64,000 nt of DNA from a virus (lineage: Duplodnaviria > Caudoviricetes). The notes beneath the pieces are model-generated. The model was given only the letters and a program-made list of their open reading frames with translations, made no database searches and had not been told where the DNA came from. The position numbers and the translations under genes were made by a program. The stretch is taken from the IMG/VR virus record IMGVR_UViG_3300002220_000406, positions 869-64,868 of that record; one strand, written 5' to 3'. Shown piece after piece: positions 5,485-29,248 of this stretch; positions within the stretch are counted from its first letter, which is position 1; each line of letters starts with the position of its first letter.

Positions 5485-5562
5485 AGATCAAATGCCTTAT
5501 GGCTTGTTTTTTCCTTGCGATCAGTTGTCAAGTATAAGTACGCCGACTTTCATCAGCGTATG

Positions 5563-5591
5563 TTGAGAATATCATAAAAATTTGTTATAGT
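5563..5591 (+). promoter_or_regulatory. sigma70-type promoter for a leaderless SLT transcript
   Basis: TTGAGA (5563-5568), 17 bp, TATAGT (5586-5591) with extended TG; ATG 6 nt downstream and no RBS. Confidence 0.7.
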
Positions 5592-5597
5592 AAAGCG

Positions 5598-6293
5598 ATG
5601 CCCAATAAGAAAAAGACATCGCGAGCACCAGCCAAGCCCCCGGGAGCGCCGGCGAAAAGTGTGTACGACCGCTATATTGACGAGGCTGCTGCGGAGCATG
5701 GCATAGATAGGTGGCTTTTGAGATCCATTATTTGGAATGAATCTAGTGACGATCCCAACGCAAGAAGCCAAGTTGGGGCCAGAGGCTTGGCACAGATAAT
5801 GCCGGCGACCTTCAATTACATTAGAACGGGGTTAGGATATAAAGACGTAAAAAATATTGATGATCCAAGGGACAATGTCCGGGCCGGGGCAAAATACCTG
5901 CGATATTTAATGGACAAGTTTAAAAATCCGACCATGGCCGTTGCTGCTTATAACGCAGGCCCAGGTAATGTGAACAGGCATATCAGGAAGGGAACAGCTA
6001 TCAATGGCGTGCCAGATATCAAGGAAACTCGAGATTATGTGGGCAAGGTAATGGGAGATTACAATCGCTTTGCAACTGAGATGCAAAAAACAACTCAGCA
6101 GCAGCAAGACCTTGCTCAACCGAACGCCATGAAAATACCAAGTTTAATGGAAATGTTTGGACCGAAAACCCAAGGACCCTTGCTCAATACAATTCCAGCG
6201 GCAACGCCGCCTCCACAGCAGCAAAGCCCAGTGTCAGACCTATCCCAAATCCCCGGCGTCGGTTTCGCGAAGAAACTTCTCGGCTGGGATTAA
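5598..6293 (+). CDS. lytic transglycosylase (SLT/GH23 family) with Q/P-rich tail
   Basis: Motifs IIWNESS, GARGLAQIMPAT, NVRAGAKYL, AVAAYNAGPGNV and ETRDYV are canonical for SLT domains. Confidence 0.92.
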   Translation: MPNKKKTSRAPAKPPGAPAKSVYDRYIDEAAAEHGIDRWLLRSIIWNESSDDPNARSQVGARGLAQIMPATFNYIRTGLGYKDVKNIDDPRDNVRAGAKYLRYLMDKFKNPTMAVAAYNAGPGNVNRHIRKGTAINGVPDIKETRDYVGKVMGDYNRFATEMQKTTQQQQDLAQPNAMKIPSLMEMFGPKTQGPLLNTIPAATPPPQQQSPVSDLSQIPGVGFAKKLLGWD

Positions 6294-6314
6294 ATCAAAA
6301 AGCAAACGACACAG

Positions 6315-6578
6315 TTATCGCTCATAATGATCCCTCTCCTTGAACAGATCCGGCAATCCCTCCTGATATCTCGCTGGGAGTGTGTCAGGCTTGTTCTTTG
6401 CCGCTCTAACCTGATCCGTAATTTGATTGGGAAGGTTATTTCTGTAAAACAGTCTATCCAGAAGTTGCTGTTGTACGGCCTCGTGCTGCTTTACCATAAA
6501 CTTCAAAGTCCTTACCTCGAAATGTCTGATAAAAACGCCGATTGCGATTCCGGCAAGGGCAATTAGTGTGTATTCCAT
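6315..6578 (-). CDS. small membrane-anchored protein (87 aa)
   Basis: ATG at 6578 coupled to the terminase stop (TAATG); N-terminal hydrophobic segment MEYTLIALAGIAIGVFI. Confidence 0.65.
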   Translation of the reverse strand: MEYTLIALAGIAIGVFIRHFEVRTLKFMVKQHEAVQQQLLDRLFYRNNLPNQITDQVRAAKNKPDTLPARYQEGLPDLFKERDHYER

Positions 6579-8380: not shown

Positions 8381-8565
8381 TACCAGTGTTTGGGCGTCCA
8401 ACCCGATCCTCGAAATTGAGGCGGTGAGGTTGCTGCAACGGCTTTTTCGGCCTTCTGCCCACATTCAGGGCATTTTATCGTGTCCGTCCGCTCAGAAACC
8501 TTTAAAATCTTCTGTGTGCGTGTCTGACACTTGTCGTTCAGGCATTGATATTCATATATCGGCAT
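8380..8565 (-). CDS. FmdB-family zinc-ribbon protein (61 aa)
   Basis: MPIYEYQCxxxxC...CPECG...FRGSGW matches the FmdB (CxxC_CxxC_SSSS) signature. Confidence 0.8.
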   Translation of the reverse strand: MPIYEYQCLNDKCQTRTQKILKVSERTDTIKCPECGQKAEKAVAATSPPQFRGSGWTPKHW

Positions 8566-8566
8566 A

Positions 8567-8797
8567 TTAGTTAATGTAAGCCACTCCGTTCTCAAATTTA
8601 ACGTCTTCGGCAAAGCCTTGGATCACAAGATGGGGTTGGCCTTTCTTCCATTTGCTTTCCGTTGGCACGTTAACAACGATGTTGTCAGCGGTGTAACACG
8701 CTCCTTTCCAGTGGACGCTGAGACATCCCTTGGCACGGTAATAATGGTAATAAAACCTATATTTCTTTGTCCCAGTTTGGGGTTGGTTTGTCGACAT
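8567..8797 (-). CDS. hypothetical phage protein
   Basis: ORF MSTNQPQ...FYYHY..KGCLSVHWKGAC...QPHLVIQG; packed with its neighbours. Confidence 0.65.
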   Translation of the reverse strand: MSTNQPQTGTKKYRFYYHYYRAKGCLSVHWKGACYTADNIVVNVPTESKWKKGQPHLVIQGFAEDVKFENGVAYIN

Positions 8798-8939
8798 AGG
8801 CCAATCCTCGCAGCGTGTCCTTGTGTTGCTGCCACGCAAGTAACGCTTTGTAACATCCATTTTCTCTCAATTCAGCCTCGATCTTTTCAAATTCACGGTC
8901 AAAGTCGCTGACTGTGCGATATTTTAACTCAAGGTTCAC
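8757..8939 (-). CDS. hypothetical protein (60 aa)
   Basis: GTG start with GAGGTGG RBS; overlaps both neighbours. Confidence 0.5.
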   Translation of the reverse strand: MNLELKYRTVSDFDREFEKIEAELRENGCYKALLAWQQHKDTLRGLAYVDKPTPNWDKEI

Positions 8940-9465
8940 AAAACCACCTCGTGGTGTTGGGCTCCGGGACAAAGTCCGACTCCTGATCAAATGCACCGCA
9001 TATCCACTTGCTTCGATTGTTTACAGTTATATGGAGGTTATTGTCGTCACCCTTGATAAAGTGAAAAATCTTGTATTGCTCAGGAATACTTGCCCAGTTT
9101 TGAGTCCCAAAATTCAGGCTGAACAGGTAGGTGCCGGTGTGTATGTCATTACCCGCAGATCGGAACTCGACCGTCCAGTTTTGCACAAACGGCAAAACAA
9201 CTGTCTCGGCCTCGTTGCTGAGACTGTCCCATGGGCACACATCAATATTCTCAAAGGCGTCAGGGTCGAAACAGATGGCGTGTGGAGGCACATAGCAGAA
9301 CATTGCACCGGCTTCGGTCAAGACCATCAGCTTAGGAGCTTCGTTTAAACATGCCTGTATTGCCACGATAAAGCCCCTCTGAGCACCTTTTGGTCGTGAT
9401 GCCTGGGCAAGGTACCTGTTCCGAATAAAAACAGGTGTGAAAGGTGTGGCTATCAAATTGTTCAT
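8929..9465 (-). CDS. hypothetical protein (178 aa)
   Basis: Long ORF with normal protein composition in a minus-strand run. Confidence 0.7.
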   Translation of the reverse strand: MNNLIATPFTPVFIRNRYLAQASRPKGAQRGFIVAIQACLNEAPKLMVLTEAGAMFCYVPPHAICFDPDAFENIDVCPWDSLSNEAETVVLPFVQNWTVEFRSAGNDIHTGTYLFSLNFGTQNWASIPEQYKIFHFIKGDDNNLHITVNNRSKWICGAFDQESDFVPEPNTTRWFCEP

Positions 9466-9540
9466 ATTTGCGTTTAGAGGCGTTCTGAGCAGGTTTTAGA
9501 TCAAAAGGCTACCCTACCCCTATTTAACTCCAAAAACGGC

Positions 9541-9762
9541 TTAGAGAGCCTCTAATGAGCCAACAAGGTATGGTGAGGGTTTTGCCACGGGCATATAAGC
9601 CAAAACTTCCGACTTGTGGAAGCCTTGCGTCCAATAACCATTGCGGAACTGGGCATGAGACACCACAAGGCCCCTGTCCCCAACCCACGTGACCCAATAG
9701 TCGCCTTCAGTGTCCGGTGTCGCTCCCGGTGTCCAAAATGTCGTCCCAGTCTTCGTCTTCAT
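9541..9762 (-). CDS. hypothetical protein, DUF551-like (W...P...G.Y.V...AYMP..KP)
   Basis: Motif pattern typical of small phage DUF551-type proteins. Confidence 0.5.
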   Translation of the reverse strand: MKTKTGTTFWTPGATPDTEGDYWVTWVGDRGLVVSHAQFRNGYWTQGFHKSEVLAYMPVAKPSPYLVGSLEAL

Positions 9763-9904
9763 TGAAATCAATTTTTAAAATCACGCAATAAGGCAGCAAG
9801 ATCTCGCCCACCACAGACGCAAGGCGTTTGAGCGTCTCGTCGTCAGGTGCGTGATTCGCTATCACGTCAAAGGCCTCGATTATTTCCTGTGCCTCATCAT
9901 CCAT
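9707..9904 (-). CDS. acidic hypothetical protein (65 aa), probably leaderless
   Basis: MDDEAQEIIEAFD...; ATG at 9904 lies 6 nt after TGTTACAAT. Confidence 0.6.
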   Translation of the reverse strand: MDDEAQEIIEAFDVIANHAPDDETLKRLASVVGEILLPYCVILKIDFNEDEDWDDILDTGSDTGH

Positions 9905-9910
9905 ACGAAA

Positions 9911-9919
9911 ATTGTAACA
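9911..9919 (-). promoter_or_regulatory. extended -10 promoter (leaderless)
   Basis: Minus strand TGtTACAAT, 6 nt, ATG. Confidence 0.55.
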
Positions 9920-9958
9920 TATTAGGCGAAAAACCAACAATAAAAGCGATACCCTGAA

Positions 9959-10160
9959 AAAATGAGCCTCTTCCTTTCAAAAACAGGCATTGGTAGGGGT
10001 ACTACGGGGGCACCGCAAAATGAGCCTCTCCGTTTGAAAATCGGCATTGGGTGGGGGTACTGGGGTGTAGCGGAAAATGAGCCTCTCCTTTCAGAATTTG
10101 GGGTTGGTACTGGTACTACGGGGTACCAGAAAATGAGCCTCTTCTTTTCAAAAATGGGCA
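9959..10160. repeat. degenerate tandem repeat, 4 copies, period 56-58 bp
   Basis: AAAATGAGCCTCT at 9959, 10017, 10074 and 10130, each followed by related TTT(C/G)A(A/G)AA..GGCA(TTGG)...GGTACT..GGG sequence; non-coding gap. Confidence 0.9.
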
Positions 10161-10389
10161 TACCACCCACCCACCACCACCCACCCGAGCCTCCGATCTG
10201 GTCTCCGAGAGCCTCCGAGCCGTCTCGATCTGACCCGAGCCCAGAGCCTCGAGGCTCGTATCTCCGAGACGCACTGCCAGTCCTCGAGCCAGATCTGCGA
10301 GGGCTCGAGCTCGTATCTCCGAGGGCAACGCTGCAATCCCTCGAGCGTCCTATCTCCGAGACGGAAGGATAGCCGGCTAACCTATCGGC

Positions 10390-10422
10390 AAAGAGAAAGG
10401 GCTGAGGACGAATCCCCAGCCC
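10390..10422 (-). terminator. rho-independent terminator ending the leftward early operon
   Basis: Minus strand GGGCTGGGGA-TTCG-TCCTCAGCCC followed by TTTCTCTTT; UUCG tetraloop. Confidence 0.8.
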
Positions 10423-10446
10423 ACAGCCCTCGAGGTTGAGAGCGAT

Positions 10447-10650
10447 CTATGCGCGCTCCCAGTACTTGCGGATGCGGTCACCCCAGATAATTGTGGGGCA
10501 CATAGTGTCCAGCCGTGAGTAGCACGCCCGAACGATTGGGACGTGAATCTTACAGACCCAGTCCACCAACCGCTCCGATCTGAGAGCCGAGACGAGCCAG
10601 AGAAGGTGGAGCGTGCCGATGTACGCCCCGAGCAGTATGTGCTTTGTCAC
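10447..10650 (-). CDS. hypothetical protein with hydrophobic N-terminus (67 aa)
   Basis: GTG start with GGAGG RBS; last gene before the terminator. Confidence 0.6.
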   Translation of the reverse strand: MTKHILLGAYIGTLHLLWLVSALRSERLVDWVCKIHVPIVRACYSRLDTMCPTIIWGDRIRKYWERA

Positions 10651-11075
10651 TCTGCCACCTCCGAGAACTCCTCATACGGAAAGCTATCGTCACCCTCGAG
10701 CACGATCTCCGAGGGCTCACCGACCACGGAGAGGCACGAGGGAGCCTCGAGCCTCGCCCACTGATAGATCGCCCCCTCGATGGTCTCGCAGTCCGTCACG
10801 TCGACCTCAACAAAGAACCGACACGGCACAGTGAAAACGACCCTCATAACACCCGAGGGTGGAGCCTCGAGCCTCGAGAAGGGCTCAGCCAATCCGAGCA
10901 GACTCTCGAGGGCGTTCCGGACTTCGGGAGCGAGCACACGCCACGCATCCTCGTCTGGGTATCCGTCTCTGTCTGCGGTGTAGTTGGCGAATTTCTCGCC
11001 AAGCTCCGAGAGCCACCAATTAGCCGTCATTCTCGCCTTTTCGGCTCTGTCCGAATCTAACGCTGCATTTATCAT
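10647..11075 (-). CDS. acidic early protein (142 aa); C-terminal part weakly resembles the small beta-beta-alpha family
   Basis: GGAGG RBS; RVVFTVPCRFFVEVDVTDCETIEGAI pattern. Confidence 0.65.
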   Translation of the reverse strand: MINAALDSDRAEKARMTANWWLSELGEKFANYTADRDGYPDEDAWRVLAPEVRNALESLLGLAEPFSRLEAPPSGVMRVVFTVPCRFFVEVDVTDCETIEGAIYQWARLEAPSCLSVVGEPSEIVLEGDDSFPYEEFSEVAE

Positions 11076-11368
11076 TTTTCACCTCCGAATTTAACCACAC
11101 GCTGAAGAAACGCCACCGAGGGCACATAGTACCACTGGGGCTCGCCACACTCGCATTCGCAATCCCACCCAGCCATCCAATGACCGCAAGGTGGACGCTT
11201 GACCAGATCCCACCCGAGCCTCCGCTTCGAGCGGTTGCCCCGACCCAGTTCTGCGACCCGAGCCAGTGGTCTATCATCACTCAGCACCTCCGCAGACTTA
11301 GCCACGGCAACCTCTGCCGAGAGTCCGCACTTCATCAGCGCACAGGCAAACTTACGAAATCTGCTCAT
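11072..11368 (-). CDS. early hypothetical protein (98 aa, Cys-rich C-terminus)
   Basis: GGAGG RBS; CGH...CECECG motif. Confidence 0.6.
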   Translation of the reverse strand: MSRFRKFACALMKCGLSAEVAVAKSAEVLSDDRPLARVAELGRGNRSKRRLGWDLVKRPPCGHWMAGWDCECECGEPQWYYVPSVAFLQRVVKFGGEK

Positions 11369-11558
11369 CCTTCACCTCCCAAGCCTCTCCGACTTCATAC
11401 TCATTGAAAACCTTGACCGAGCACCTATCCACCAACTCGTACAAGTGCCCATCCTCGTCAGCCTGTTCCACCAGCTTCTGGGCATCCTCGGCTGAGTCCG
11501 CTTCGACCTCGAGCTTGTGTGACTCGTACAGATCGAGCTCAACTAGAAACTTTGGCAT
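11352..11558 (-). CDS. small acidic beta-beta-alpha protein (DpnD/PcfM-like family member)
   Basis: MPKFLVELDLYESHKLEVEADSAEDAQKLV matches the repeated family motif; GGAGG RBS. Confidence 0.7.
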   Translation of the reverse strand: MPKFLVELDLYESHKLEVEADSAEDAQKLVEQADEDGHLYELVDRCSVKVFNEYEVGEAWEVKDEQIS

Positions 11559-11688
11559 CTTTCACCTCCTTGCGAAGTCTCTGGACTTCACGCACACGCT
11601 CCACCTGTTTGCGCTTATAGCCGACAGGGTCGAGCTTAGCCTCCCGAGCCTCTCGCACGAGTTGCTCGAACAAATCCTTGCTATTCAT
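11539..11688 (-). CDS. first gene of the leftward early operon (49 aa, helical)
   Basis: AGGAGG RBS, ATG at 11688, downstream of a TTGACA promoter. Confidence 0.65.
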   Translation of the reverse strand: MNSKDLFEQLVREAREAKLDPVGYKRKQVERVREVQRLRKEVKDAKVSS

Positions 11689-11725
11689 AGTTCCTCCTAA
11701 ATGCCCGAAAGAGTCGGACAAGGTG

Positions 11726-11754
11726 ACAGTATCAACCAAGGGCTGTTATGTCAA
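11726..11754 (-). promoter_or_regulatory. leftward early sigma70 promoter
   Basis: TTGACA, 17 bp, TACTGT with extended TG; shares ATTGACATAACA with the rightward promoter at 12850. Confidence 0.75.
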
Positions 11755-12239
11755 TCTCCGAGAACGACCCGAGCAAGGCTCTCCGCTTCAACTCGGGGGA
11801 GGGGGTTCTCTCGAGGGAGATCTGCGTGGAAGTGTTGAAACAGATTCACAAGTAAGTTCCGGATACCATCACGCAAAGCAGCCTCGGAAGATATGGAGGT
11901 CGGCTGAGCCGTCTCGAGGCGGTGTGTGTTCTGTAGAACGCTCAAGAGGTTAGGCAGAACTCCGTCCTTGATGTCCCGAGCTTTTAGCTTTTCGTTAATG
12001 ATCTCCGAAACGAGGTATCGGTTTTCTTCGTTGATTGTGGCGAAGTCTCGCACCTTCCTGTCTGCTAGGAGCAGTATCTCGGGCGTGACTGTTTCGGGCG
12101 TAAGTCTGGTTACTGTGTCACGGCTTACCCCGTGCCTAGTGGCTATATGTTCTTGTGTGGATATTTGCAGATATTTCTCCGCCAGAATCTCCGCCTTGGC
12201 TTGGTCGCTGAGGTTATGGTCTCCCTTATTGCGTCCCAT
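11751..12239 (-). CDS. putative terminase small subunit (N-terminal HTH)
   Basis: HTH-like TQEHIATRHGVSRDTVTRL, helical middle, RLETAQPTSI motif; size and late-type context fit TerS. Confidence 0.55.
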   Translation of the reverse strand: MGRNKGDHNLSDQAKAEILAEKYLQISTQEHIATRHGVSRDTVTRLTPETVTPEILLLADRKVRDFATINEENRYLVSEIINEKLKARDIKDGVLPNLLSVLQNTHRLETAQPTSISSEAALRDGIRNLLVNLFQHFHADLPRENPLPRVEAESLARVVLGD

Positions 12240-12515
12240 TTAGAAGTTTATGACCCCGAACTTTTTCGGCTTTGTGTGAGTCTTTACGAGCTGGTCTATT
12301 AGTGCGAGGAGTCGAAGGTTTACCACTTCGTAATCGGTGGCTTTTTGGGTTGCCTTGCCCAGTTCGACCTTTAGCTCGACTATTACCTCGTCACGAGCTT
12401 TTAAAGCCCCCTCGAGGGCTTCAATGAGCGTGTCTCGGGCATCGGGCTGGCTTGTCTGGGCATTGACCAGTACAGGGGCGAATAGAAGCAATGCGGTTAA
12501 GGTCAAGGTTTTCAT
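12240..12515 (-). CDS. exported coiled-coil protein, spanin-like (outer component candidate)
   Basis: Signal peptide MKTLTLTALLLFAPVLVNA|Q, coiled coil, overlapped with an upstream TM/coiled-coil gene. No lipobox Cys seen. Confidence 0.45.
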   Translation of the reverse strand: MKTLTLTALLLFAPVLVNAQTSQPDARDTLIEALEGALKARDEVIVELKVELGKATQKATDYEVVNLRLLALIDQLVKTHTKPKKFGVINF

Positions 12516-12802
12516 TTTTTCAAGGCTCTCCGAGCTTCGATGACTTTCTGGTCAGCGGTCTTGAGTCTGGTGTCGATCGCTTCGAGCTTTGCCTCGAGGC
12601 GTGCTTCAGACTGGCTGACCTTGGCATCGACCAAAGCCTCGACTGCGGAGAGGTCGAGAGGCGGTGGTGGCGGTGCCGGCTTCGAGCATTTAGCCGAAAA
12701 GAAGACCACAACAAGGACAGCCAGACACAGAACGAGCAGAGCGTTCTGTCGGATGAGGTTAAGAGCGTCGATGCCTATTCGGGCGAGAAGTGCGGTGAAC
12801 AT
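12512..12802 (-). CDS. membrane-anchored coiled-coil protein, spanin-like (inner component candidate)
   Basis: TM segment ALLVLCLAVLVVVFFS, poly-Pro linker, coiled coil. Confidence 0.5.
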   Translation of the reverse strand: MFTALLARIGIDALNLIRQNALLVLCLAVLVVVFFSAKCSKPAPPPPPLDLSAVEALVDAKVSQSEARLEAKLEAIDTRLKTADQKVIEARRALKK

Positions 12803-12807
12803 AAGGC

Positions 12808-12816
12808 ATTATAGCA
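12808..12816 (-). promoter_or_regulatory. extended -10 promoter, leaderless transcript of the spanin-like/terS unit
   Basis: Minus strand TGcTATAAT, 5 nt, ATG (12802); no RBS. Confidence 0.65.
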
Positions 12817-12850
12817 TATTTGCGCTTTTCTTAGAAGTGCTGACTGGGTA

Positions 12851-12880
12851 TTGACATAACAACAAAGAGCCGTTTAAGAT
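12851..12880 (+). promoter_or_regulatory. rightward early sigma70 promoter
   Basis: TTGACA, 18 bp, TAAGAT; GGAGG RBS and ATG at 12900. Confidence 0.75.
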
Positions 12881-12899
12881 GCCTTCGGAGGTTAGACAA

Positions 12900-13268
12900 A
12901 TGACAAATACAAAATTCGATATCACGGCTCAGCGTGGCTGGGTCGATCACCTACCCAGCTCAGCCAAGGGGCATAGCTTCGACCAAGCCCTTCTGGCGAT
13001 AGACTCGGAGGGCACTTCGGTTGGGCGTTTTTGGTGGCGTTGGACTCGAGGGGGCACTTGCCAGTGCATCGTTCAAATAAACGGCATTGGTCGAGGCTAT
13101 GGGAAGGCTGGGGGCTATGGCTACGACAAGAAAGCACAGGCTCTCGACAATGCCCTCGCAAGCGTGGGGATCAAGTGGAAGTCTGCCCACGACATCACGC
13201 CAGATTACGACCTTCAAACGATGTTCGAGGAACTGGACAACAAAGAGGTACAGGTCTACTGGGTCTAG
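12900..13268 (+). CDS. conserved phage early protein (GxGxAGGYGYDK motif)
   Basis: GRGYGKAGGYGYDKKAQALDNAL motif; first gene after the promoter. Confidence 0.75.
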   Translation: MTNTKFDITAQRGWVDHLPSSAKGHSFDQALLAIDSEGTSVGRFWWRWTRGGTCQCIVQINGIGRGYGKAGGYGYDKKAQALDNALASVGIKWKSAHDITPDYDLQTMFEELDNKEVQVYWV

Positions 13269-13297
13269 GGGCATCAGCCCCTACCCTTGGAGGAACA

Positions 13298-13783
13298 ATG
13301 AGAATAGAGAAAAATAAAATGATAACTTTTGAGTCGCTATACCGCCAGTTTGCTGGCGAGTCGGTCTATCTGGGCGAGGTGATGCACGAGCTAGTCTTTG
13401 AGAAGGGCTCGGAGGCGTATCACCCCAGCATCACTTGGACATTCACGCCACCCAACGAAGAAGAGGAGGAGGTGGTCATTGCCCTTGCCATCGAGGGAGA
13501 ACGAGTGACGGATTATTTCGGGGTCTCATCGCTTCCGGCACTGGCGTTAACCTTTTTGAGGGCTCTGGGCTATGACTGCTCAGAGATCGAGGAGAGGGAG
13601 GGGGATATCCCCTCCCCAATCACCTGTGCCGATTGTGGCTCGGGCGATGTCGTGCCACTGGCTGATGCGGTGTGGAACGGCAAGGAAGGACGCTGGAGCG
13701 TTGCGTGGGTCAACACTGAGGGATATTGCAAAGTCTGCGACAAAGACGGAGTGCAGCTAAGGAGGGCTTATGAGGCTATATGA
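13298..13783 (+). CDS. acidic early protein with C-terminal zinc ribbon (family B)
   Basis: GGAGG RBS; CADCGSGDV..LADAVWN....WSV...GYCKVCD. Confidence 0.75.
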   Translation: MRIEKNKMITFESLYRQFAGESVYLGEVMHELVFEKGSEAYHPSITWTFTPPNEEEEEVVIALAIEGERVTDYFGVSSLPALALTFLRALGYDCSEIEEREGDIPSPITCADCGSGDVVPLADAVWNGKEGRWSVAWVNTEGYCKVCDKDGVQLRRAYEAI

Positions 13784-14231
13784 TTTTGTGAAAGAAGACA
13801 GGACTGGGCTTGAGGGGATGCTCAAGACCTTTGCCCGAGCGGAGTGGGACGCTCGGGTGCGGAATGGTGAGACGCTGGACACTCTGGCGTTTTTAACTGA
13901 CCTTGCGGAGGCATTGGACGAGGAATTTTGTTCCGAGCTTGAGGCGGTGATGGTGGGGCTATCTGCCTACACCCACCTCTTCAACCGCTTCATCGAGCAC
14001 TACCTCGACCACGAGCTTTTTTTTGTGCTTGCGGTCGATCTCTGGAAGGCTTGCGGACATAAAGTGCCGGCAATCTGTGCCAAGTGTCACACAGGTGACC
14101 AGCTCGAGCTTTCGGGCGATGTTCGGGTGGTGAACGGCAAGGTCGAGATTATCAAGCTCGACATCCAGTTCTGCAACAACTGTGCGGAGCATACAACAGT
14201 TTTGGGGGTGGATTGTGAGCAGAGAAGATAG
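13770..14231 (+). CDS. acidic early protein with C-terminal zinc ribbon (family B)
   Basis: CAKCHTGDQL......FCNNC. Confidence 0.75.
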   Translation: MRLYDFVKEDRTGLEGMLKTFARAEWDARVRNGETLDTLAFLTDLAEALDEEFCSELEAVMVGLSAYTHLFNRFIEHYLDHELFFVLAVDLWKACGHKVPAICAKCHTGDQLELSGDVRVVNGKVEIIKLDIQFCNNCAEHTTVLGVDCEQRR

Positions 14232-14376
14232 GGAACGACTCGAGGATGCGGTGGAGTTGATTCTCGACAGGGACGGCACAGTGTTGCCGTCTCTGGTCGA
14301 GGATGCAATCCAATGGATTAGGCAAAACGGACTGGTCGAGGAAGCCAGAGCCGAAATTACAAGGAGACAGAAATGA
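14215..14376 (+). CDS. small helical early protein (53 aa)
   Basis: GTG at 14215, overlapped with neighbours. Confidence 0.55.
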   Translation: MSREDRERLEDAVELILDRDGTVLPSLVEDAIQWIRQNGLVEEARAEITRRQK

Positions 14377-14615
14377 AGACTAAAGTGATCTGCACCGATT
14401 GCAAGGGCGAGGATGTGCTTTTAGACACATTGGCGGTATGGAATGTGGAAAAGCAAGACTGGGTCGTGTTCGATGTGGCAGAGCCTAGAGCCTTTTGTAG
14501 GGACTGCGACACGGATGTTGAATGGGATATGGTGGACATCGAGAGCGGTGTCCCCCATCTCGAGAAAGTCATCAGTGATTTTGAGGAGGGAAACAATGGA
14601 CAAGAAACAAATTGA
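14373..14615 (+). CDS. standalone zinc ribbon (family B)
   Basis: CTDCKGEDVLLDTLAVWNVEKQDWVV...AFCRDCD. Confidence 0.75.
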   Translation: MKTKVICTDCKGEDVLLDTLAVWNVEKQDWVVFDVAEPRAFCRDCDTDVEWDMVDIESGVPHLEKVISDFEEGNNGQETN

Positions 14616-14775
14616 ACAGGTCAAGCGAGCGGTCTCCAGTGCGATCTATGCACTCTGGGACGCTTCGATGGTTCCGGAGGGTCATCCGGTAGGCAACAAG
14701 ATAGAATCGGCTCATTCGAGGCTGATAGAGGCAAGGCTGATGCTTAAAAAGCTGGAGGAGGCAAACAATGAATAA
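14596..14775 (+). CDS. small helical early protein (59 aa)
   Basis: GAGGAGG RBS, ATG at 14596. Confidence 0.65.
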   Translation: MDKKQIEQVKRAVSSAIYALWDASMVPEGHPVGNKIESAHSRLIEARLMLKKLEEANNE

Positions 14776-15262
14776 ATACACAGTACTGGCACGGACGATT
14801 ATGACTTACAAGGTCGAGGTTGAGGCAGAGACCGGTGACGATGCTCGAGACAAAATGATTGACCTTTGGGAGCAGTGGGGTACGGAAAAGTTTGCGGCTA
14901 TAGACGAGGAGGATTTTGAGGTGAGAGAAGCCATCGACCAAGGCGAGGTGGTGCTCGAAAAGCAATTGGTCTGCGAGGATTGCAAAAGCTCGGACTTGAC
15001 CCTCGAAGCTGAGGTTCAGTATCAAAACGGCACACTGATTGTCGGCAATCTGATTAGAGCCTTTTGTAACATTTGCGATGACATCTGCAACACGGAGGAA
15101 ATCGTGCCGCTTAAAACTTGGAATGTCTCGTGGTCAGAGCCCCATATCCGATGGGGGGTCAGAGGGGAAACTGCTGAAGAAGCCATACTGATCGCTCAGC
15201 GAGAGGGTCAGAGCGACACTGTCGAAGGACGGCACAACTATTGTGCGTGGGAGGCGGTATGA
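14768..15262 (+). CDS. modular early protein: family A domain + family B zinc ribbon + family A-like domain
   Basis: MNKYTV...YKVEVEAETGDDA; CEDCKSSDL...AFCNICD; KTWNV...VRGETAEEAILIA. Confidence 0.75.
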   Translation: MNKYTVLARTIMTYKVEVEAETGDDARDKMIDLWEQWGTEKFAAIDEEDFEVREAIDQGEVVLEKQLVCEDCKSSDLTLEAEVQYQNGTLIVGNLIRAFCNICDDICNTEEIVPLKTWNVSWSEPHIRWGVRGETAEEAILIAQREGQSDTVEGRHNYCAWEAV

Positions 15263-15597
15263 ACACTGCCACGGACACAGTGATGTTATGGCTGAGAGCG
15301 ACTGGGGAGGAATCCCCAGTTCGCTCCATCGTCAGAGCGTTCTACGATGAGATGAACCAGAACGGATGCGATTACTTCAACGATGGCACGCTGGAGGAGT
15401 TCACGGACAAATACCGCTCAGCGGTTCGAGAAAGGGTCTGGGACGCTTTTCTGGCTCTGGGTCACGACTACGCTGAGCCGGTGACCTATTTGTCCGTCTT
15501 GACAACAAGGGCTGTTTTGTTGCAGTGTGACTGGGCAGTCATCATCCGGCAAGTGGTCGGTGATGAGGGTCTAGTCTTTTTGGAGGTGGGAGAATGA
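15259..15597 (+). CDS. early hypothetical protein (112 aa)
   Basis: GGAGG RBS, ATG at 15259. Confidence 0.7.
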   Translation: MNTATDTVMLWLRATGEESPVRSIVRAFYDEMNQNGCDYFNDGTLEEFTDKYRSAVRERVWDAFLALGHDYAEPVTYLSVLTTRAVLLQCDWAVIIRQVVGDEGLVFLEVGE

Positions 15598-15695
15598 GAT
15601 TTATTTACGGATTAATTGTGACCGCCAGCTTTTTGAGCGGTTTGGCATTGGGGTTTATCGAAGGGCTCAGACACGCTGAGACCCTCTGGAGGTAG
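15594..15695 (+). CDS. 33-aa single-pass membrane peptide (not in the ORF track)
   Basis: ATGA coupling; MRFIYGLIVTASFLSGLALGFIEGLRHAETLWR fills the gap exactly. Confidence 0.6.
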   Translation: MRFIYGLIVTASFLSGLALGFIEGLRHAETLWR

Positions 15696-15697
15696 AA

Positions 15698-16006
15698 ATG
15701 GCAGAGTACAAAATACTGACAAATGAATTTGACCCACAAAGTTTTTTTGTGGAGTACCAGAAACGCTTCGCAGACTATGAGGGCGTGGCACAGATCTCTC
15801 TGGTGGACAGGTCGAAAGGACTGCACACCACGGAAGAACGGCTGCACTTGGTGCGAGTGACCAAGGTACACGATATGTTGGTTCGTGCTTCGTGCATAGA
15901 CCAAGCTGAGGCGATAGCAATAGGTGACCAGACTGGTGCGTGGTCGACTGTCATCTCGACAAATGTGACGGCTAAATTTTTAGGGGAGGATAAGGACAAT
16001 GCCTAA
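15698..16006 (+). CDS. early protein with C-terminal family A-like domain
   Basis: HLVRVTKVHDMLVRASCIDQAEAIA; GGAGG RBS. Confidence 0.7.
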   Translation: MAEYKILTNEFDPQSFFVEYQKRFADYEGVAQISLVDRSKGLHTTEERLHLVRVTKVHDMLVRASCIDQAEAIAIGDQTGAWSTVISTNVTAKFLGEDKDNA

Positions 16007-16484
16007 TTGGTGTAGCAATGAATTTTCGATTGTTGGGTCAGAGACGGACGCAAGGGAGTTTATGCGGAAGCATTTGACCCCAACCACTGACGAAGATACC
16101 GGTCTGCCCAGAACGGACGATAGACACGAAATGGACTTTAATCAGTTCATTCCAGAGCCTAGCGATCTAGGTGAAGGTGGGTGGTATAACTGGCGTATCG
16201 AGAACTGGGGTACGAAATGGCAACCGGCTTTTTTAGTTGCCAATAGACTGAAGGGCATCATCACTATTCAGTGCGAGACTGCTTGGTCTCCACCAAGACC
16301 CATCGCAGAAGCCATCTCCAAAATGTATCCCTTGATGGTGGTCAGACTCCAATACTTTGAGGAGGGAATGGACTACTGGGGCGTTTGCGTGTTCCAAGGT
16401 GGCGAGATGGTTGCCGCAGTATCAGCTGAGGGTGAATGGGAGAAGGACGAGGACTGGATGGAGGTGAGTGATGCCGAGAACTAG
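15999..16484 (+). CDS. YubB/DUF1281-like ferredoxin-fold protein
   Basis: MPNWCSN...DFN..IPEP...WYNWRIENWGTKW...ETAWSPP...YFEEG signature. Confidence 0.8.
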   Translation: MPNWCSNEFSIVGSETDAREFMRKHLTPTTDEDTGLPRTDDRHEMDFNQFIPEPSDLGEGGWYNWRIENWGTKWQPAFLVANRLKGIITIQCETAWSPPRPIAEAISKMYPLMVVRLQYFEEGMDYWGVCVFQGGEMVAAVSAEGEWEKDEDWMEVSDAEN

Positions 16485-16641
16485 GAACTGGGTGGTGCGT
16501 GTATACGACAAAGAGGGTGAGGTCTGCCATTCGTGGCAGATACCTCACAGGGCTGAGGATGAGGCTAGGAGAGAGGCTGAGGCTGATATCCGGCACATAG
16601 ACTGCGATGACTGGGTAATGATCGCAATGGAGGCACAATGA
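16471..16641 (+). CDS. small acidic early protein (56 aa; not in the ORF track)
   Basis: GGAGG RBS; MPRTRNWVVRVYDKEGEV...AEDEARREAE. Confidence 0.65.
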   Translation: MPRTRNWVVRVYDKEGEVCHSWQIPHRAEDEARREAEADIRHIDCDDWVMIAMEAQ

Positions 16642-16958
16642 TGAAGACATACGAAATAGAGGTGACAAGGAAGGGCAAACTTACGCTGAGGGCTGAGTCA
16701 GAAGAAGCACTTAATGAGATTTTGTTTGAGTCGGATGACGATATCTTCGATAACTGCATTACTCGGACAGATTGGGAGCTTCTGAATATTTCCGATGCTC
16801 CGGAGACCAAACGATACAGGGTGTTGGCACGAGAGGTCTGGGCGTATTCGGTGGATGCGGTCAGTGAAGAGGAGGCCGCCTTTCTGGTCGATAACGAGGG
16901 CTATAAGCACAAGACCGAAATGCGTGGTTTTGAGATTGAGGATATCGAGGAGGTTTAG
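16638..16958 (+). CDS. tandem two-domain family A protein
   Basis: KTYEIEVTRKGKLTLRAESEEAL... and KRYRVLAREVWAYSVDAVSEEEAA... Confidence 0.75.
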   Translation: MMKTYEIEVTRKGKLTLRAESEEALNEILFESDDDIFDNCITRTDWELLNISDAPETKRYRVLAREVWAYSVDAVSEEEAAFLVDNEGYKHKTEMRGFEIEDIEEV

Positions 16959-16959
16959 G

Positions 16960-17142
16960 ATGAATAAGTACAAGGTGTCTTTGGTCAAGCGTTTTAAGGT
17001 GGTCGTGGAGGCAAAGGATAGGGCTGAGCTGGAAGAGATGCTATTTGAGTCAAGCGATGAGATCGCTACGGATGAATGTCTGGATTATACGGACTGGGAT
17101 GTAATAGCCGAGTGGGCAATCGCTGACGAGGAGGAGGTTTGA
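16960..17142 (+). CDS. family A small acidic protein (60 aa)
   Basis: MNKYKVSLVKRFKVVVEAKDRAEL; shares LFESxD..D.C...TDW with the preceding gene. Confidence 0.75.
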   Translation: MNKYKVSLVKRFKVVVEAKDRAELEEMLFESSDEIATDECLDYTDWDVIAEWAIADEEEV

Positions 17143-17143
17143 A

Positions 17144-17332
17144 ATGCTATCAACGGAATGGACAAGGGCTAGGATGCAACAAGAGGGCATTGAGCTGGTG
17201 GATGCGTGGTGCTTGCACCAGCCGGACGATGAGGTTTGCGAGTGGGTGGTGGTAGGCAGTCCGGATTGCAAATGCGGATGTAACAACGACCACATTCACT
17301 GTCAACACGGATATATCATAGAGGTTGGATAG
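17144..17332 (+). CDS. small Cys/His-rich early protein
   Basis: WCLHQP...CKCGCNNDHIHCQHG; GAGG RBS. Confidence 0.6.
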   Translation: MLSTEWTRARMQQEGIELVDAWCLHQPDDEVCEWVVVGSPDCKCGCNNDHIHCQHGYIIEVG

Positions 17333-17340
17333 GAGGAAAA

Positions 17341-17523
17341 ATGAAAACATACACAATTGAGTACAGTTTGATCTATACAATGACCCAAGAGGTTGAGGCT
17401 GAGAACGAAGAGGCTGCGATTGACGCAGTGGAGGATAATGCCGGTGCTGGCATCGAGCACGATGTGAGAGTTACTGGTTTCACAGTCATAGATGAGTATG
17501 GAGAGGAGGAAGAAGATGAATAA
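17341..17523 (+). CDS. family A small acidic protein
   Basis: MKTYTIEYSLIYTMTQEVEAENEEAAIDAV; AGGAGG RBS. Confidence 0.75.
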   Translation: MKTYTIEYSLIYTMTQEVEAENEEAAIDAVEDNAGAGIEHDVRVTGFTVIDEYGEEEEDE

Positions 17524-17743
17524 GTATGAGATGAAATTTGAGGATCTGGATGAGAAGCATTTTGTGGTTTATTTCGATTGCCACGCAGACAGTGAGGAAA
17601 CGATTCAAGAGTCGGGTTATGTGTCGATCAGACAGGACGATGCGGATAAATGCTTCTATGTAGTGTCTTTCGACCACGAAGGCAATGTCCTGTCGCAGAC
17701 GGCAGTTCCGATGGCAGTGAGGGAGGGCAGAGATGAAGAATAA
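17516..17743 (+). CDS. small acidic beta-rich early protein (75 aa)
   Basis: GAGGAGG RBS, ATG at 17516. Confidence 0.65.
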   Translation: MNKYEMKFEDLDEKHFVVYFDCHADSEETIQESGYVSIRQDDADKCFYVVSFDHEGNVLSQTAVPMAVREGRDEE

Positions 17744-17966
17744 CTGGCTATTTGAGCAAACGGCAATGGGCAACTTGGGGACACCTTTTTGGGTGTCCTC
17801 ACAAAAGCCCAAGGTAAAGGTGTACAGGGTCAGATGGCACGAGTGTGCCGAGGCGATCGTGGTGGCTACAGACCCAGAGTCGGCTATCGACAAAGCGGTG
17901 GATGCCCCGAATGTCCGGTTTGATGGACGCTGCAACTATGAGGTCGAGGAGGTGGTAGGTGAATAA
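17733..17966 (+). CDS. family A small protein
   Basis: KVYRVRWHECAEAIVVATDPESAIDKA. Confidence 0.7.
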   Translation: MKNNWLFEQTAMGNLGTPFWVSSQKPKVKVYRVRWHECAEAIVVATDPESAIDKAVDAPNVRFDGRCNYEVEEVVGE

Positions 17967-18150
17967 GTACAAAGTATGGACAGAAGAAGTGATTATCAAG
18001 TATTGGGAAGTCGAGGCTGAGAGTCCGGAGTGGGCAGAAGCCCACATCAAGTCACTGCACGAGTACGACCCCACAGGGGATATGGGCGAGACAGTGGACA
18101 GAGTCAACTTTCAGATACAGACTGTAGAGGAGGTGAACAATGAGCAGTGA
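17959..18150 (+). CDS. family A small acidic protein
   Basis: MNKYKVWTEEVIIKYWEVEAESPEWAEAH. Confidence 0.75.
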   Translation: MNKYKVWTEEVIIKYWEVEAESPEWAEAHIKSLHEYDPTGDMGETVDRVNFQIQTVEEVNNEQ

Positions 18151-18316
18151 GCAGTTAGAGGCGATTCGATGTGCCTATGCAGATCTATTAGGTGCATACC
18201 AAGCCTACGAGCAGTCAGATATGCTTGCACACGATTGGAAGGCACACAGGCTGACGCTAGATGAGATGTTGGAATTATTTTCGTTTCTAAAGGAGGAAAC
18301 AGATGTACAAAATTGA
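18140..18316 (+). CDS. conserved small phage early protein (58 aa; not in the ORF track)
   Basis: MSSEQLEAIRCAYADLLGAYQA...HDWKAH..TL; GGAGG RBS. Confidence 0.7.
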   Translation: MSSEQLEAIRCAYADLLGAYQAYEQSDMLAHDWKAHRLTLDEMLELFSFLKEETDVQN

Positions 18317-18605
18317 AATTGATTGGCAAGAGTTTTACTTCGACACTTTGGAGGAGGCTCAGAAGGTCGCAAGCAGACATTACGAGGTCTCGGGTCACAG
18401 GCTTGCTATCGACAAAGTGATTGGCGAAAAGAAAAAGTACAACAGGTACATATTCAGAGTCGAGCAGTATAGCAACTATCCTGTGGTGGCAGAGTCAGAG
18501 GAAGAGGCGTGGGAAATAATAGGCGAGGCAGACCTTTCGGAACTCTTGCCCGAAGAGATGGAGTGGAACATAGTAGATGTGATTGAGGAGGGAAGCAATG
18601 CCTAG
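18303..18605 (+). CDS. two-domain early protein with family A C-terminal domain
   Basis: FYFDTLEEAQKVA and RYIFRVEQYSNYPVVAESEEEAWEII. Confidence 0.75.
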   Translation: MYKIEIDWQEFYFDTLEEAQKVASRHYEVSGHRLAIDKVIGEKKKYNRYIFRVEQYSNYPVVAESEEEAWEIIGEADLSELLPEEMEWNIVDVIEEGSNA

Positions 18606-18783
18606 ATATTTATACAGGATAGACACGAAGACGATCTGGGAGGGCTGGATAGAGGCTGACTCTCAAGAAGAGGCTGAAAAGAGAGCGGAGTCCGGAGACT
18701 GGGATGAGACTTGGGATTGCGACATTGACTATGTTTTTTTGACCGAGCTGGTGAAGCTCGATAAGGAGGATGAGGATGAGTAA
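18598..18783 (+). CDS. family A small acidic protein
   Basis: MPRYLYRIDTKTIWEGWIEADSQEEAEKRA. Confidence 0.75.
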   Translation: MPRYLYRIDTKTIWEGWIEADSQEEAEKRAESGDWDETWDCDIDYVFLTELVKLDKEDEDE

Positions 18784-19090
18784 ACAATACGATGCGATAA
18801 CAAAAGCGTTTTTGAAGATGCGGTTTGCACAGGACGGGAATCATTACTGCTCAATGTGCGTGTACTGCGAGGGGATGGCAGAGAAATACCTTGAAGAGGT
18901 GAATCTCGAGGACGAGAAGCTATTCGAGGTCGAGTTTGATGAGGTCACACGGAAGACTGTGAAGGTGTCTGCCAAGACCGAGGAGGAGGCCTGTCAAAAG
19001 GTTGCCAACCGGCAACACGATGACTCCTCGACCTACTATCATATGCATGGCTATAGGATTGAAAATTTGCACGCTGAGGAGGCTGAATGA
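18770..19090 (+). CDS. early protein with Cys-rich N-terminus and family A C-terminal domain
   Basis: YCSMCVYC; LFEVEFDEVTRKTVKVSAKTEEEACQKV. Confidence 0.75.
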   Translation: MRMSKQYDAITKAFLKMRFAQDGNHYCSMCVYCEGMAEKYLEEVNLEDEKLFEVEFDEVTRKTVKVSAKTEEEACQKVANRQHDDSSTYYHMHGYRIENLHAEEAE

Positions 19091-19368
19091 TCTGTCCAAT
19101 GTGTGATTCGGATGCTGCGGAGGAATTAGGCACACTGGGCAATGCCATCCATTACCGGTGTCGAGCGTGCGGTATGATGAGTTTTAGTGAGGTTCCGATG
19201 TTTACGGATACCGAAGCACTGTACCTATGCCGGAAGGTGGCTGCGTCTAGGGGCGGTAGAGCGTCCAAGGGTGGTGGAAGGAGGAAGATACCAGACCACG
19301 AGCTGACGGATGCTCAGAGAAAGCGTAGAGAGCGTGACGCAAGACGCAAAAAGAGAACCGAGCTTTAA
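19087..19368 (+). CDS. zinc ribbon with basic, putative DNA-binding tail
   Basis: CPMC...GTLGNAIHYRCRACG; SRGGRASKGGGRRK; K/R-rich end. Confidence 0.7.
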   Translation: MICPMCDSDAAEELGTLGNAIHYRCRACGMMSFSEVPMFTDTEALYLCRKVAASRGGRASKGGGRRKIPDHELTDAQRKRRERDARRKKRTEL

Positions 19369-19382
19369 AGCTCGGTTCTTTT
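19351..19382. terminator. bidirectional terminator / perfect 26-bp palindrome
   Basis: AGAACCGAGCTTT|AAAGCTCGGTTCT (19354-19379), flanked by an A-tract and a T-tract, at a convergent gene junction. Confidence 0.8.
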
Positions 19383-19646
19383 ATGTTCGATTACTATTTC
19401 CAGCTTGTTCTCCAGTCTGGAGATCGCTTGGTCTATGTGAGTAAACTGAAGCTCAATCCGTTTCTCAAACTCTGAAAAGAAGTCTGCGTTGTGGTGGATC
19501 GCCAAATTATTCTCGTGGCGTTCCAGCCGTCTTTGAAGAACCCGAAAGTCATCAATGCTACGAGTCGCTTTAGCCTCGAGCCTGACCAGCCAGACTACAA
19601 GTCCGACTCCAGCGGTTATGATGGCAACGGCAGCGGGCTCGATCAC
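19365..19646 (-). CDS. holin/hemolysin-like membrane protein
   Basis: N-terminal TM (AAVAIITAGVGLVVWLV) plus coiled coil, coupled to the endolysin. Confidence 0.55.
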   Translation of the reverse strand: MIEPAAVAIITAGVGLVVWLVRLEAKATRSIDDFRVLQRRLERHENNLAIHHNADFFSEFEKRIELQFTHIDQAISRLENKLEIVIEHKRTEL

Positions 19647-20521
19647 GGCTTATTCATCCTCTCTCTGTGGGCGTTGTTGGCTGATTGGCGATACCAAAAC
19701 ACTGCCAACCCTACAAGGGCTAGGGATAGGCAGAGGTAGAGGACTTGTGATGGTGTTAGGCGGTTGACTTGAGTCTCAACCATTGCCCCAAGGTTGATGC
19801 CCAGACCGGCTATGCCGGTGAGTGCTGCCCCAACCTTGGTAAACATCGAGGGGGAGGGGTCTGGAGCCGATGGGAGGTTAGGTGTAGGAGGTGCATCGGC
19901 TCCAGACCGCGTCACTGACTCTTGGGCAGTGACGCTGACGGAAAGGATACGCATGAAGTGGTCGGCATGCCCAGCGATCAAGGCTGCGTGGTCAGTGCCG
20001 TTGATAACCCTTCTGGCGTTTCTAAAATCTATTTTGGACTCGTTGATGTAGTCATTTAACTTCTTCCCTGTAAACCATCCTTGAGTCGAGCCTAGTACCA
20101 GCACCGCAAATGCGATCTCGTGGTCACAGGCTTGCTCCGGAAAGACAAGGAGGTCAAAGTGCTGACCAGTCCGTTTTTCAAAAGAGCTGACAATGTCGGG
20201 GCATTGCTTTCTAAGCTCGAGGGTTGCCTTCTTGTAGTTGTAATCCCAAGTAAGCTGGACATACCCTCTGCCGTAATACTTCTTGCCGTTGACCGGCTTG
20301 CCGTACTTCCGGCCTTTGCCTTTGCCGATCTCCTCGATCGGTCTCATTGTCCTTGCAGTTTCATGATAAGTGGTCGCAAGAAGATATGCAAGTACGCTCG
20401 GTGACACTTGGTGACACTCTATGCTACTCAGTAACAGGTTAAGGGCATCGACCTGCTTCTGGTTCAGCCGGCCAAAGGCAGACTTATATCCCGCAAAAAA
20501 CTTCTCACGATCCACTATCAT
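19643..20521 (-). CDS. endolysin, GH19 (chitinase-like/lysozyme fold), with two C-terminal hydrophobic segments
   Basis: LAYLLATTYHET, YYGRGYVQLTWDYNY and ARRVINGTD motifs; C-terminal VGAALTGIAGLGINLGA and VLYLCLSLALVGLAVFWY. Confidence 0.85.
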   Translation of the reverse strand: MIVDREKFFAGYKSAFGRLNQKQVDALNLLLSSIECHQVSPSVLAYLLATTYHETARTMRPIEEIGKGKGRKYGKPVNGKKYYGRGYVQLTWDYNYKKATLELRKQCPDIVSSFEKRTGQHFDLLVFPEQACDHEIAFAVLVLGSTQGWFTGKKLNDYINESKIDFRNARRVINGTDHAALIAGHADHFMRILSVSVTAQESVTRSGADAPPTPNLPSAPDPSPSMFTKVGAALTGIAGLGINLGAMVETQVNRLTPSQVLYLCLSLALVGLAVFWYRQSANNAHRERMNKP

Positions 20522-20876
20522 TCTCCCATTTTACCATAATACCGCCTTTTCTTAAACTCTCGGGTAAAAACTCCAGTATCTTGAGCCAATCTGCCAATGA
20601 AACTGCGATCAGCGTGCCTTGGCGGTTCTTTTTGGAGGCTACCGCATTGATCTTTCCTTCTTGGGCTGGCATCTCAGCCAGTACCTTGTGGACATTGAGT
20701 GCCTCGACTGCCTTGCACTGGTAGACAAATGCTCCGGTGTTGGCAAGATCTTGCCCCAGCGGATCGAGTTCTGGTGCTGCGAGTCGGCTCGTTTTGATTC
20801 CGGGATGGGTATCCCTCAGTAGGTTCGCCATGTCCCTCTCGAACTGATGCCCTTTGCGTCTAGCAGCCTTACCCAT
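20505..20876 (-). CDS. Holliday junction resolvase (PD-(D/E)xK, Hjc-like)
   Basis: MGKAARRKGHQFERDMANLL...QDL...YQCK signature. Confidence 0.75.
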   Translation of the reverse strand: MGKAARRKGHQFERDMANLLRDTHPGIKTSRLAAPELDPLGQDLANTGAFVYQCKAVEALNVHKVLAEMPAQEGKINAVASKKNRQGTLIAVSLADWLKILEFLPESLRKGGIMVKWENDSGS

Positions 20877-27117: not shown

Positions 27118-27242
27118 AGTACTGTTCTTTTCGCTCTTGGAAAGCGCTATGCCATTGAGTTAGCGCAAGGTAATTTCAGTTGTATAAGTTGGTACTGTTT
27201 TTTGGATGTGGGACCGTCGGACTCCGGCGGTCCTTTACAAAA

Positions 27243-29247: not shown

Positions 29248-29248
29248 C

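Follow-up and report, generated by a model that had tools for sequence, protein, structure and literature searches.

The early block and its genomic setting

The DNA considered here is a window of 64,000 nucleotides, bases 869-64868 of a 64,868-bp virus contig from IMG/VR (IMGVR_UViG_3300002220_000406), which belongs to a phage of the class Caudoviricetes. Within this window, a block of small early genes next to the gene for the large terminase (TerL) is nearly free of about twelve words of four or five base pairs that are frequent in the late genes. The void coincides with two divergent early operons and with their terminators at 10399-10422 and 19354-19379. The features of the locus are collected in Table 1.

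Table 1. Features of the phage genome and of its relatives (window coordinates unless a relative is named)
Feature	Position	Strand	Remarks
TerL	6578-8464	-	late unpurged region, directly adjoining the sharp edge; query for finding relatives
TerL and head genes	8464 down to 334, wrapping to 63926		circular map
Large tail/virion proteins and 6,096-aa open reading frame	frame ending at 29505		circular map
Short plus-strand operon	27180-29542	+
Middle (replication) operon, domain B	27016 down to 19365	-	primase/helicase, Mu Gam-like gene, GH19 endolysin, small membrane protein (holin-like gene)
Block of small genes (early block)			after the replication operon on the circular map
Domain A, full void	9950..19950		GGCC, CATG, ACGT, CGCG, GCGC, CCNGG, GGNCC, CGNCG, ACSGT, CCCGC/GCGGG, GCAGG/CCTGC, TCAGG/CCTGA; partial loss of GCNGC
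Four degenerate 57-bp direct repeats	9950..10160		AAAATGAGCCTCT..., then G-rich GGGGTAC-like halves; non-coding, at the sharp TerL-side edge
Non-coding spacer	10161..10446		rich in CTCGAG, CTCCGAG, GAGCCTC; holds the leftward-operon terminator (10399-10422, -)
Leftward early operon	10447..12802	-	about 8 small genes
Conserved 162-aa protein	11751-12239	-	leftward operon; weak helix-turn-helix
Two membrane or secreted proteins	12240-12802	-	leftward operon
Divergent promoter region	12803..12899		putative, from consensus matches
Sigma-70-like promoter	12851-12880	+	TTGACA-18-TAAGAT; pattern match
Rightward early operon	12900..19368	+	22 tightly packed small genes, strong Shine-Dalgarno sites
Bidirectional terminator	19354-19379		perfect palindrome; convergent junction closing the early block
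First returning sites, opposite edge	CATG 19046/19952, GGCC 20311, CCSGG 20800, GCGC 21280, ACSGT 22531, CGNCG 22877
First returning sites, continued	GGSCC 23740, CGCG 25566, CCWGG 26053, GGWCC 26615, ACGT 27805
Methylase loci of relatives	L087:15105-17384; L003:4541-6427; L006:1-2407
Intein-bearing TerL relatives	P0081, P0085, P0086, P0089, P0094, P0098, P0099, P0106

The phage is also present as 64,898-bp Logan contigs in two independent public runs, and the rotations of these contigs differ. Since this length equals that of the genome plus a 30-base overlap, the assembly is circular and the genome is essentially complete. The completeness figure of 71% given by CheckV is an underestimate, as the genome closes as a 64,868-bp circle. 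One of the circle-closing runs (X1, X5) is labelled as a single organism and not as a metagenome, which could hint at the host. No match to TerL (tblastn) or to the block (megablast) is found among GenBank phages. GTDB species genomes contain no detectable TerL relative and hence provide no prophage or host clue. Metagenomic relatives of TerL number in the hundreds, several of them on contigs of 57-68 kb, while IMG/VR yields just one useful relative. The phage is a member of an uncultured clade unrelated to T5. Some TerL relatives of the clade reach 750-1,014 amino acids and carry intein, Hint or LAGLIDADG domains, that is, inteins within the terminase.

The products of the block are small and largely without assignable function. 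In the rightward operon, 18 of the 22 proteins have an isoelectric point of about 5 or lower, and several are paralogs. DpnD/PcfM-like matches among them reach 14-17 bits against a Pfam threshold of 25 and can be taken as a sub-threshold lead; a literature search for DpnD/PcfM returned unrelated acronyms only. Screening of 34 block and flank proteins against PHROGs and Pfam gives families of unknown function only, and no nuclease. The earlier note had spoken of interposed terS/spanin-like genes; these labels find no support, and the 162-aa protein has only weak helix-turn-helix hits (E 0.02-0.04) and no PHROG match. Five acidic block proteins have no sequence relatives in the PDB, and two ESM Atlas models of acidic block proteins, with a predicted local distance difference test score of 0.47-0.53, offer nothing usable. 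Upstream of the leftward operon, a consensus match to a TATAAT box is present.

The spacer and the leftward arm have a word content of their own. CTCCGAG (9 of the 13 copies in the window) and GAGCCTC (12 of 22) show strand-asymmetric enrichment in 10184-12600, and 15 of the 36 copies of CTCGAG lie within the 2.3 kb of the leftward early arm and spacer. This cluster may represent binding sites close to the end of the genome that is proposed below to lead.

Depletion of short recognition words

The void was first noticed by eye, and its core withstands a recount. Over 10141-19400, GGCC occurs twice, at exactly the positions reported in the earlier note (16874 and 18988), CCWGG and GGWCC are absent, and CGCG (1) and GCGC (5) are rare. 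CCGG (24), GATC (30) and TCGA (92) are common, also as reported. The expectation of about 50 GGCC sites at 55% GC has to be lowered to approximately 41-44, because the GC content is 52.2%, but the strong depletion stands. The extent of about 9 kb requires a similar correction: the void is real but wider, with a left edge at 9.15-9.95 kb and several motifs missing as far as 21-28 kb. Outside the block, the motifs are as abundant as had been stated, with 2.5-5 copies per kb.

The set of missing words is also larger than had been described. All forms of CCNGG and GGNCC are absent from the block, not just CCWGG and GGWCC, and CATG (1) and ACGT (2) had gone unnoticed. Further near-absent words are CGNCG (2), ACSGT (0), CCCGC/GCGGG (0), GCAGG/CCTGC (0) and TCAGG/CCTGA (1), and GCNGC is lowered five-fold. 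At zero order, some 41-44 copies each of GGCC, CGCG and GCGC would be expected in the block, and some 38 each of ACGT and CATG; over 9.95-19.9 kb, 15-45 copies are expected for the seven main motifs. When the 136 strand-merged 4-mers are ranked, the five lowest are all palindromes, with observed-to-expected ratios of 0.02-0.11, and the next lowest stands at 0.36. Statistics on the largest gap give a log10P of about -10 to -20 per motif, and late DNA contains about 150-270 sites for each 4-bp word. The few residual sites cluster in the leftward operon (GCGC five times, ACGT twice, CGCG once).

Palindromes of 6 bp form a separate, genome-wide tier, with observed-to-expected ratios of 0.53-0.76 in every 10-kb slice of the window. 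A block-specific loss of these palindromes is rejected: the depletion left after removing the words that contain the short motifs is equal in every slice. ATCGAT, TTCGAA, ACGCGT and ACTAGT are missing from all 64 kb (12-14 expected for each), and GAATTC and CCTAGG have one copy each in the whole window.

Composition, codon usage and protein content

A void of this kind could arise incidentally, from base composition, codon usage, strand skew or selection acting on the RNA of early transcripts, and some features of the long arm speak for such an origin: it has strong G>C and A>T skew, and its proteins are acidic and low in Gly and Pro. However, a within-gene synonymous-codon shuffle (n = 500), which preserves protein sequence, codon usage and skew, does not recreate the void. 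For each of seven motifs, none of the 500 shuffles reaches the observed count, and the shuffled means are 12-22, while control palindromes lie within their own shuffled distributions. Permuted words of equal composition are normal in the block: CCGG occurs 24-26 times, against 2 copies of GGCC, 1 of CGCG and 5 of GCGC, and GTAC (28) and TGCA (30-31) contrast with ACGT (2) and CATG (1). The earlier note had named the codon usage of acidic proteins as an explanation that would undo its claim; the shuffles and the permuted words rule out both codon and amino-acid usage. Depletion of CpG, a further candidate, is rejected, as the dinucleotide occurs 1112 times against 1300 scaled. TCGA is enriched 2.5-fold and CTCGAG about nine-fold.

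The strand behaviour of the void is equally informative. In agreement with the avoidance on both strands described earlier, palindromes are lost, and so are the non-palindromic words, in either orientation and on each of the two arms. Consequently, the agent that selects against these words reads duplex DNA and not early mRNA. The ban extends into the proteins: Gly-Pro and Pro-Gly, which necessarily encode GGNCC and CCNGG, are both absent from 2,879 block residues (4.5 and 4.4 expected), while late proteins contain 47 of each. Taken together, these observations make an origin as a by-product hardly credible.

Edges and tiers

The two edges of the void differ in shape. Towards TerL, 11 purged motifs have their last sites within 9152-9953, at the repeat array. 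The opposite edge is staggered, with the motifs returning one after another between 19.0 and 27.8 kb. Three tiers result: the early operons are fully purged, the replication operon is purged in part, up to the promoter region near 27 kb, and the late genes are unpurged. The earlier note had argued that avoidance follows position rather than gene class; the two are not separable in this genome, in which the void coincides with the early operons and then fades over the middle operon.

An infecting genome does not normally survive a cut, wherever it falls. Purging one tenth of the genome is of use only if this part is exposed at a time when the remainder is not. A sharp edge at non-coding repeats beside the packaging genes, together with the fading from early through middle to late genes, fits stepwise entry from a fixed leading end near 9.95-10.2 kb. 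The proposal of first-injected DNA made in the earlier note is thus upheld in part: the pair of edges suits a polar process such as ordered entry, while the order itself is inferred. The earlier note also took the missing words to name the likely restriction-modification specificities of the host; such an assignment would depend on knowing the host.

The repeat array, beyond which the late operon leading to TerL follows, may be a genome terminus, a packaging site or a signal for injection. In L005 and L090, the two closest relatives, the contigs break off within the homologous array; those of L117, L118 and L121 likewise stop at or near the TerL-side edge, and that of L091 ends about 3.5 kb upstream of TerL, in similar G-rich sequence. 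Such contig ends are compatible with a physical end at this place. In run X6, the k-mer depths of contigs, which are a rough guide, are 4.6-6.9 for the block and 6.6-7.4 for the flanks. A long terminal repeat equal to the block is not indicated by this rough measure, as depth does not double.

An explanation by temporal class dispenses with staged entry. Early and middle DNA would have to stay intact in order to express anti-restriction, Gam and replication functions, while late breaks would be religated, recombined, outrun by replication or shielded by a co-injected protein. The void does follow operon boundaries and the order early, middle, late, a Mu Gam-like end-protection gene is located in the middle operon, and a giant protein of the co-injected polyvalent type is encoded. 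On the other hand, with the site numbers of late DNA given above and all copies cut alike, no intact template would be left, and the very sharp edge falls among non-coding repeats, not at a gene start. This explanation is therefore considered improbable.

Self-methylation can be set aside as the reason why late DNA tolerates sites, since the genome encodes no recognisable DNA methyltransferase: a six-frame search of the whole 64,868-bp genome gives no match to PF00145, PF01555 or PF02086. Between TerL and the small-gene region, some relatives encode large C5 DNA methylases (628-759 amino acids) and an N6/N4 methylase.

Conservation in related phages

Four relatives allow the block to be compared between lineages. 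The endolysins of L117, L118 and L119 are 63-64% identical to that of the phage, the TerL of L087 is 73% identical, and gene order is kept in all four. Each possesses a small-gene block of 5-10 kb without CGCG, GCGC, CGNCG, GCNGC, CCNGG, GGNCC and usually ACGT, and the flanks do carry these core words. The asymmetry of the edges recurs in L118, in which the TerL-side edges fall at 20459-20761, beside a tandem repeat, and the opposite edges extend over 4790-11467. Words missing from the whole genome differ between the lineages: GGCC, ACGT, CCGG and GATC in L117, CCGG in L118, GGCC, CATG, CCGG and GATC in L119, and CATG in L087. In more distant TerL relatives, the number of genome-wide voids ranges from four or five to none.

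The block DNA of these four relatives cannot be aligned to that of the phage, and the few proteins in common are 25-52% identical. The persistence of the void through such divergence shows that selection maintains it and that it is not inherited as unchanged sequence. A variant of about 90% identity in run X7 points in the same direction on a shorter timescale. The 33 listed substitutions in 17.3-18.7 kb, which cover the listed part of the variant's differences, create no new site, whereas placing these changes at random would produce an average of 4.7 new sites (P = 0.02).

These data also bear on a mosaic origin, in which the block would have been recombined recently from a related phage that avoids the words throughout its genome, so that ancestry and not position would explain the void. 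Suitable donors are conceivable, as many relatives have genome-wide voids for three to five four-base palindromes (for example, L108, L113 and L110), L091 lacks CATG, CCGG, GATC and GGCC over 15 kb, and early modules of phages are often exchanged. However, region-limited voids for the same core words recur in all four of the lineages compared above, with flanks that carry the words. In addition, the block remains clean despite its divergence, new substitutions avoid the creation of sites, and the staggered edge over the replication operon would demand several nested imports. Such an import is very improbable.

Some further observations concern individual relatives. In the L118 block (L118:11000-19000), GATC is enriched about two-fold (112 against 52 scaled) and five other palindromes are absent; GATC is missing genome-wide from the sister lineages L117 and L119. 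The L087 block contains a dispersed repeat of about 150 bp at 10480-10640 and 11540-11700, which coincides with contig breaks in three assemblies and consists of a CT-rich run, a GTGCGTG run and a conserved leader before a gene start.

Stepwise entry as a proposed explanation

The explanation favoured here is a polar genome entry in steps, with the block as leading DNA that has been under selection against Type II sites. The probability assigned to it is roughly 55%. The packaged genome would have one physical end at the repeat array near 9.95-10.2 kb, beside the terminase genes, so that the block would be packaged last and ejected first. It would thus enter the cell first, followed by the replication operon, and would be exposed to host Type II enzymes during a pause in which host RNA polymerase transcribes the two early operons. 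A phage with a short recognition site in the block would be cut before it could respond, which would lead to the removal of about a dozen words of 4-5 bp, and this selection would reach into the proteins by forbidding Gly-Pro and Pro-Gly. Early products, for which the many small acidic proteins are candidates, would then blunt restriction. DNA that enters later would need less and less purging, with voids for some words in the replication operon and none in the late genes. Words of enzymes that cannot be neutralised would be removed from the whole genome, namely the 6-bp palindromes in this phage and GGCC, CCGG, GATC or CATG in relatives.

Both explanations that do without ordered entry, by temporal class and by mosaic origin, are less likely than this one. 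An inward-facing promoter (12851-12880) and a terminator (19354-19379), both identified as pattern matches, bound the long arm, as expected for entry of the T7 type. No T7-type RNA polymerase (PF00940) is found in six frames, but the same search also missed it in every control genome, so that this negative carries no information.

Several observations weigh against entry of the block as leading DNA. The genome end and the order of entry are deduced from assembled sequence; repeats alone could cause the contig breaks at the edge, and in the L087 lineage contigs break at dispersed repeats inside the block. The circular 64,868-bp assembly also fits headful, permuted packaging, in which case no fixed leading end would exist. 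The middle operon is transcribed towards the block, and consequently transcriptional pulling in the manner of T7 cannot bring it into the cell. None of the T5 pre-early functions A1, A2 and dmp (5'-deoxyribonucleotidase) is recognised in the PHROG and Pfam screens of the 34 proteins. Ocr (PF08684) and ArdA (PF07275) are not found, and no known anti-restriction family is present among those searched; the first genes thus have the acidic character of DNA mimics but no member of an Ocr/ArdA-type family. Finally, the lineages agree more closely in the words missing from the block alone than in those missing genome-wide, which a purely host-driven model does not readily predict.

This last point allows for an agent intrinsic to the clade. 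Early or virion-delivered phage nucleases might shred host DNA at short G/C-rich palindromes at a time when the block alone has entered the cell, and the block would have to lack these words so as not to fall to a weapon of the phage itself. The block set (CGCG, GCGC, CGNCG, GCNGC, CCNGG, GGNCC and ACGT) is common to five lineages whose genome-wide voids differ, and for this reason a conserved phage factor fits better than changing host repertoires. A possible source is the 6,096-aa virion protein (29505-47795, -), which resembles polyvalent injected proteins (PMC5512222). It contains a DdrB-like ParB domain (E 9e-20) and matches GNAT weakly, and no methylase, polymerase or RNA polymerase domain is found in it with Pfam at E < 0.001. 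For the DdrB-like ParB family, a role in injected proteins as a DNase or as a sensor of NTPs has been discussed (PMC5512222), and the idea of phage nucleases would extend Davison's restriction-enzyme hypothesis for T5 A1, which is in print (bioRxiv 10.1101/866236). However, at least seven specificities or one unusually degenerate enzyme would be required, no nuclease is identified in the block, and staged entry would still be needed. The purging of GGCC and CATG from the block in this phage alone, and the staggered edge, are explained no better. Overall, phage nucleases as the agent are unlikely, even though they rank first among the alternatives.

A combined form ranks between this proposal and the one by temporal class and is also unlikely. 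In this form, the three-tier void would record the order and timing of entry in a new clade with a 6,096-aa ejected protein, and the block set would reflect a conserved phage-borne nuclease directed against host DNA, with late DNA waiting outside, instead of host enzymes.

If the block is indeed leading DNA selected against host enzymes, sequence alone would suffice to read the polarity and staging of DNA entry in phages never brought into culture. So far, experiments have established the staging of entry in only a few model phages (T5, T7 and N4). Restriction pressures would moreover be split into those that can be neutralised after entry (block-only voids) and those that cannot (genome-wide voids). 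Such a split would provide a way to predict the restriction-modification repertoires of hosts and the anti-restriction capacity of phages. The roughly 30 small early proteins without an assigned family become candidates for a role against restriction. The surveys of site avoidance published so far consider each genome as a whole, and the clade suggests that sub-genomic avoidance is stronger and commoner than these surveys show.

Comparison with known systems

The closest precedent is phage T5 (Tequintavirus, Demerecviridae), in which EcoRI cuts only when its sites are placed in the first-step-transfer DNA (bioRxiv 10.1101/866236; PMC12455610). Sites outside this segment are tolerated, and early functions protect the DNA that enters later (bioRxiv 10.1101/866236; PMC12455610; PMC8594841). 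The resemblance is close: in both phages, a segment of about 10 kb with small early genes lacks sites that are found in the rest of the genome, and repeats mark its boundary. However, the T5 case concerns one 6-bp site and is experimental, whereas the present one comprises about twelve 4-5-bp words and a fading second tier, read from sequence. The T5 segment is a 10-kb terminal repeat, while contig depth gives no sign of duplication here. Furthermore, the present block consists of two divergent operons without a recognised pre-early function, and its phage comes from an unrelated, uncultured clade whose TerL has no match among GenBank phages.

T7-like phages offer a second comparison. In Murciavirus (Autographiviridae), Type I motifs have an effect only where they lie in the early-injected region (PMC12455610). 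The likeness is that motifs in the part that enters first decide sensitivity, that gene order equals temporal and entry order (PMC12455610), and that the early region lies between a host promoter facing inward and an early terminator. In contrast to the one Type I motif of that system, many Type II-type words are concerned here, and no Ocr is found. The middle operon of the present phage is transcribed towards the leading end, which entry driven by transcription cannot account for.

Genome-wide avoidance of restriction sites (palindromes) in phages was described by Rusinov et al. (2018, PMC6286503, as cited in PMC12455610 and PMC8594841); according to PMC12455610, analyses of site avoidance did not address where in the genome the sites lie. 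The loss of Type II palindromes is shared with this phenomenon, as 6-bp palindromes are depleted genome-wide in the phage and 4-bp palindromes in its relatives. The feature described here differs in being sub-genomic, sharply bounded and tiered. In the literature retrieved, no description was found of such scale, tiers, edge pattern or clade-wide conservation.

The principle is known. What is new is the scale (about twelve words of 4-5 bp), the nested tiers, the combination of a sharp and a staggered edge, and the conservation over an uncultured clade. By analogy, the phage may be regarded as a stronger, tiered variant of the first-step-transfer case of T5.

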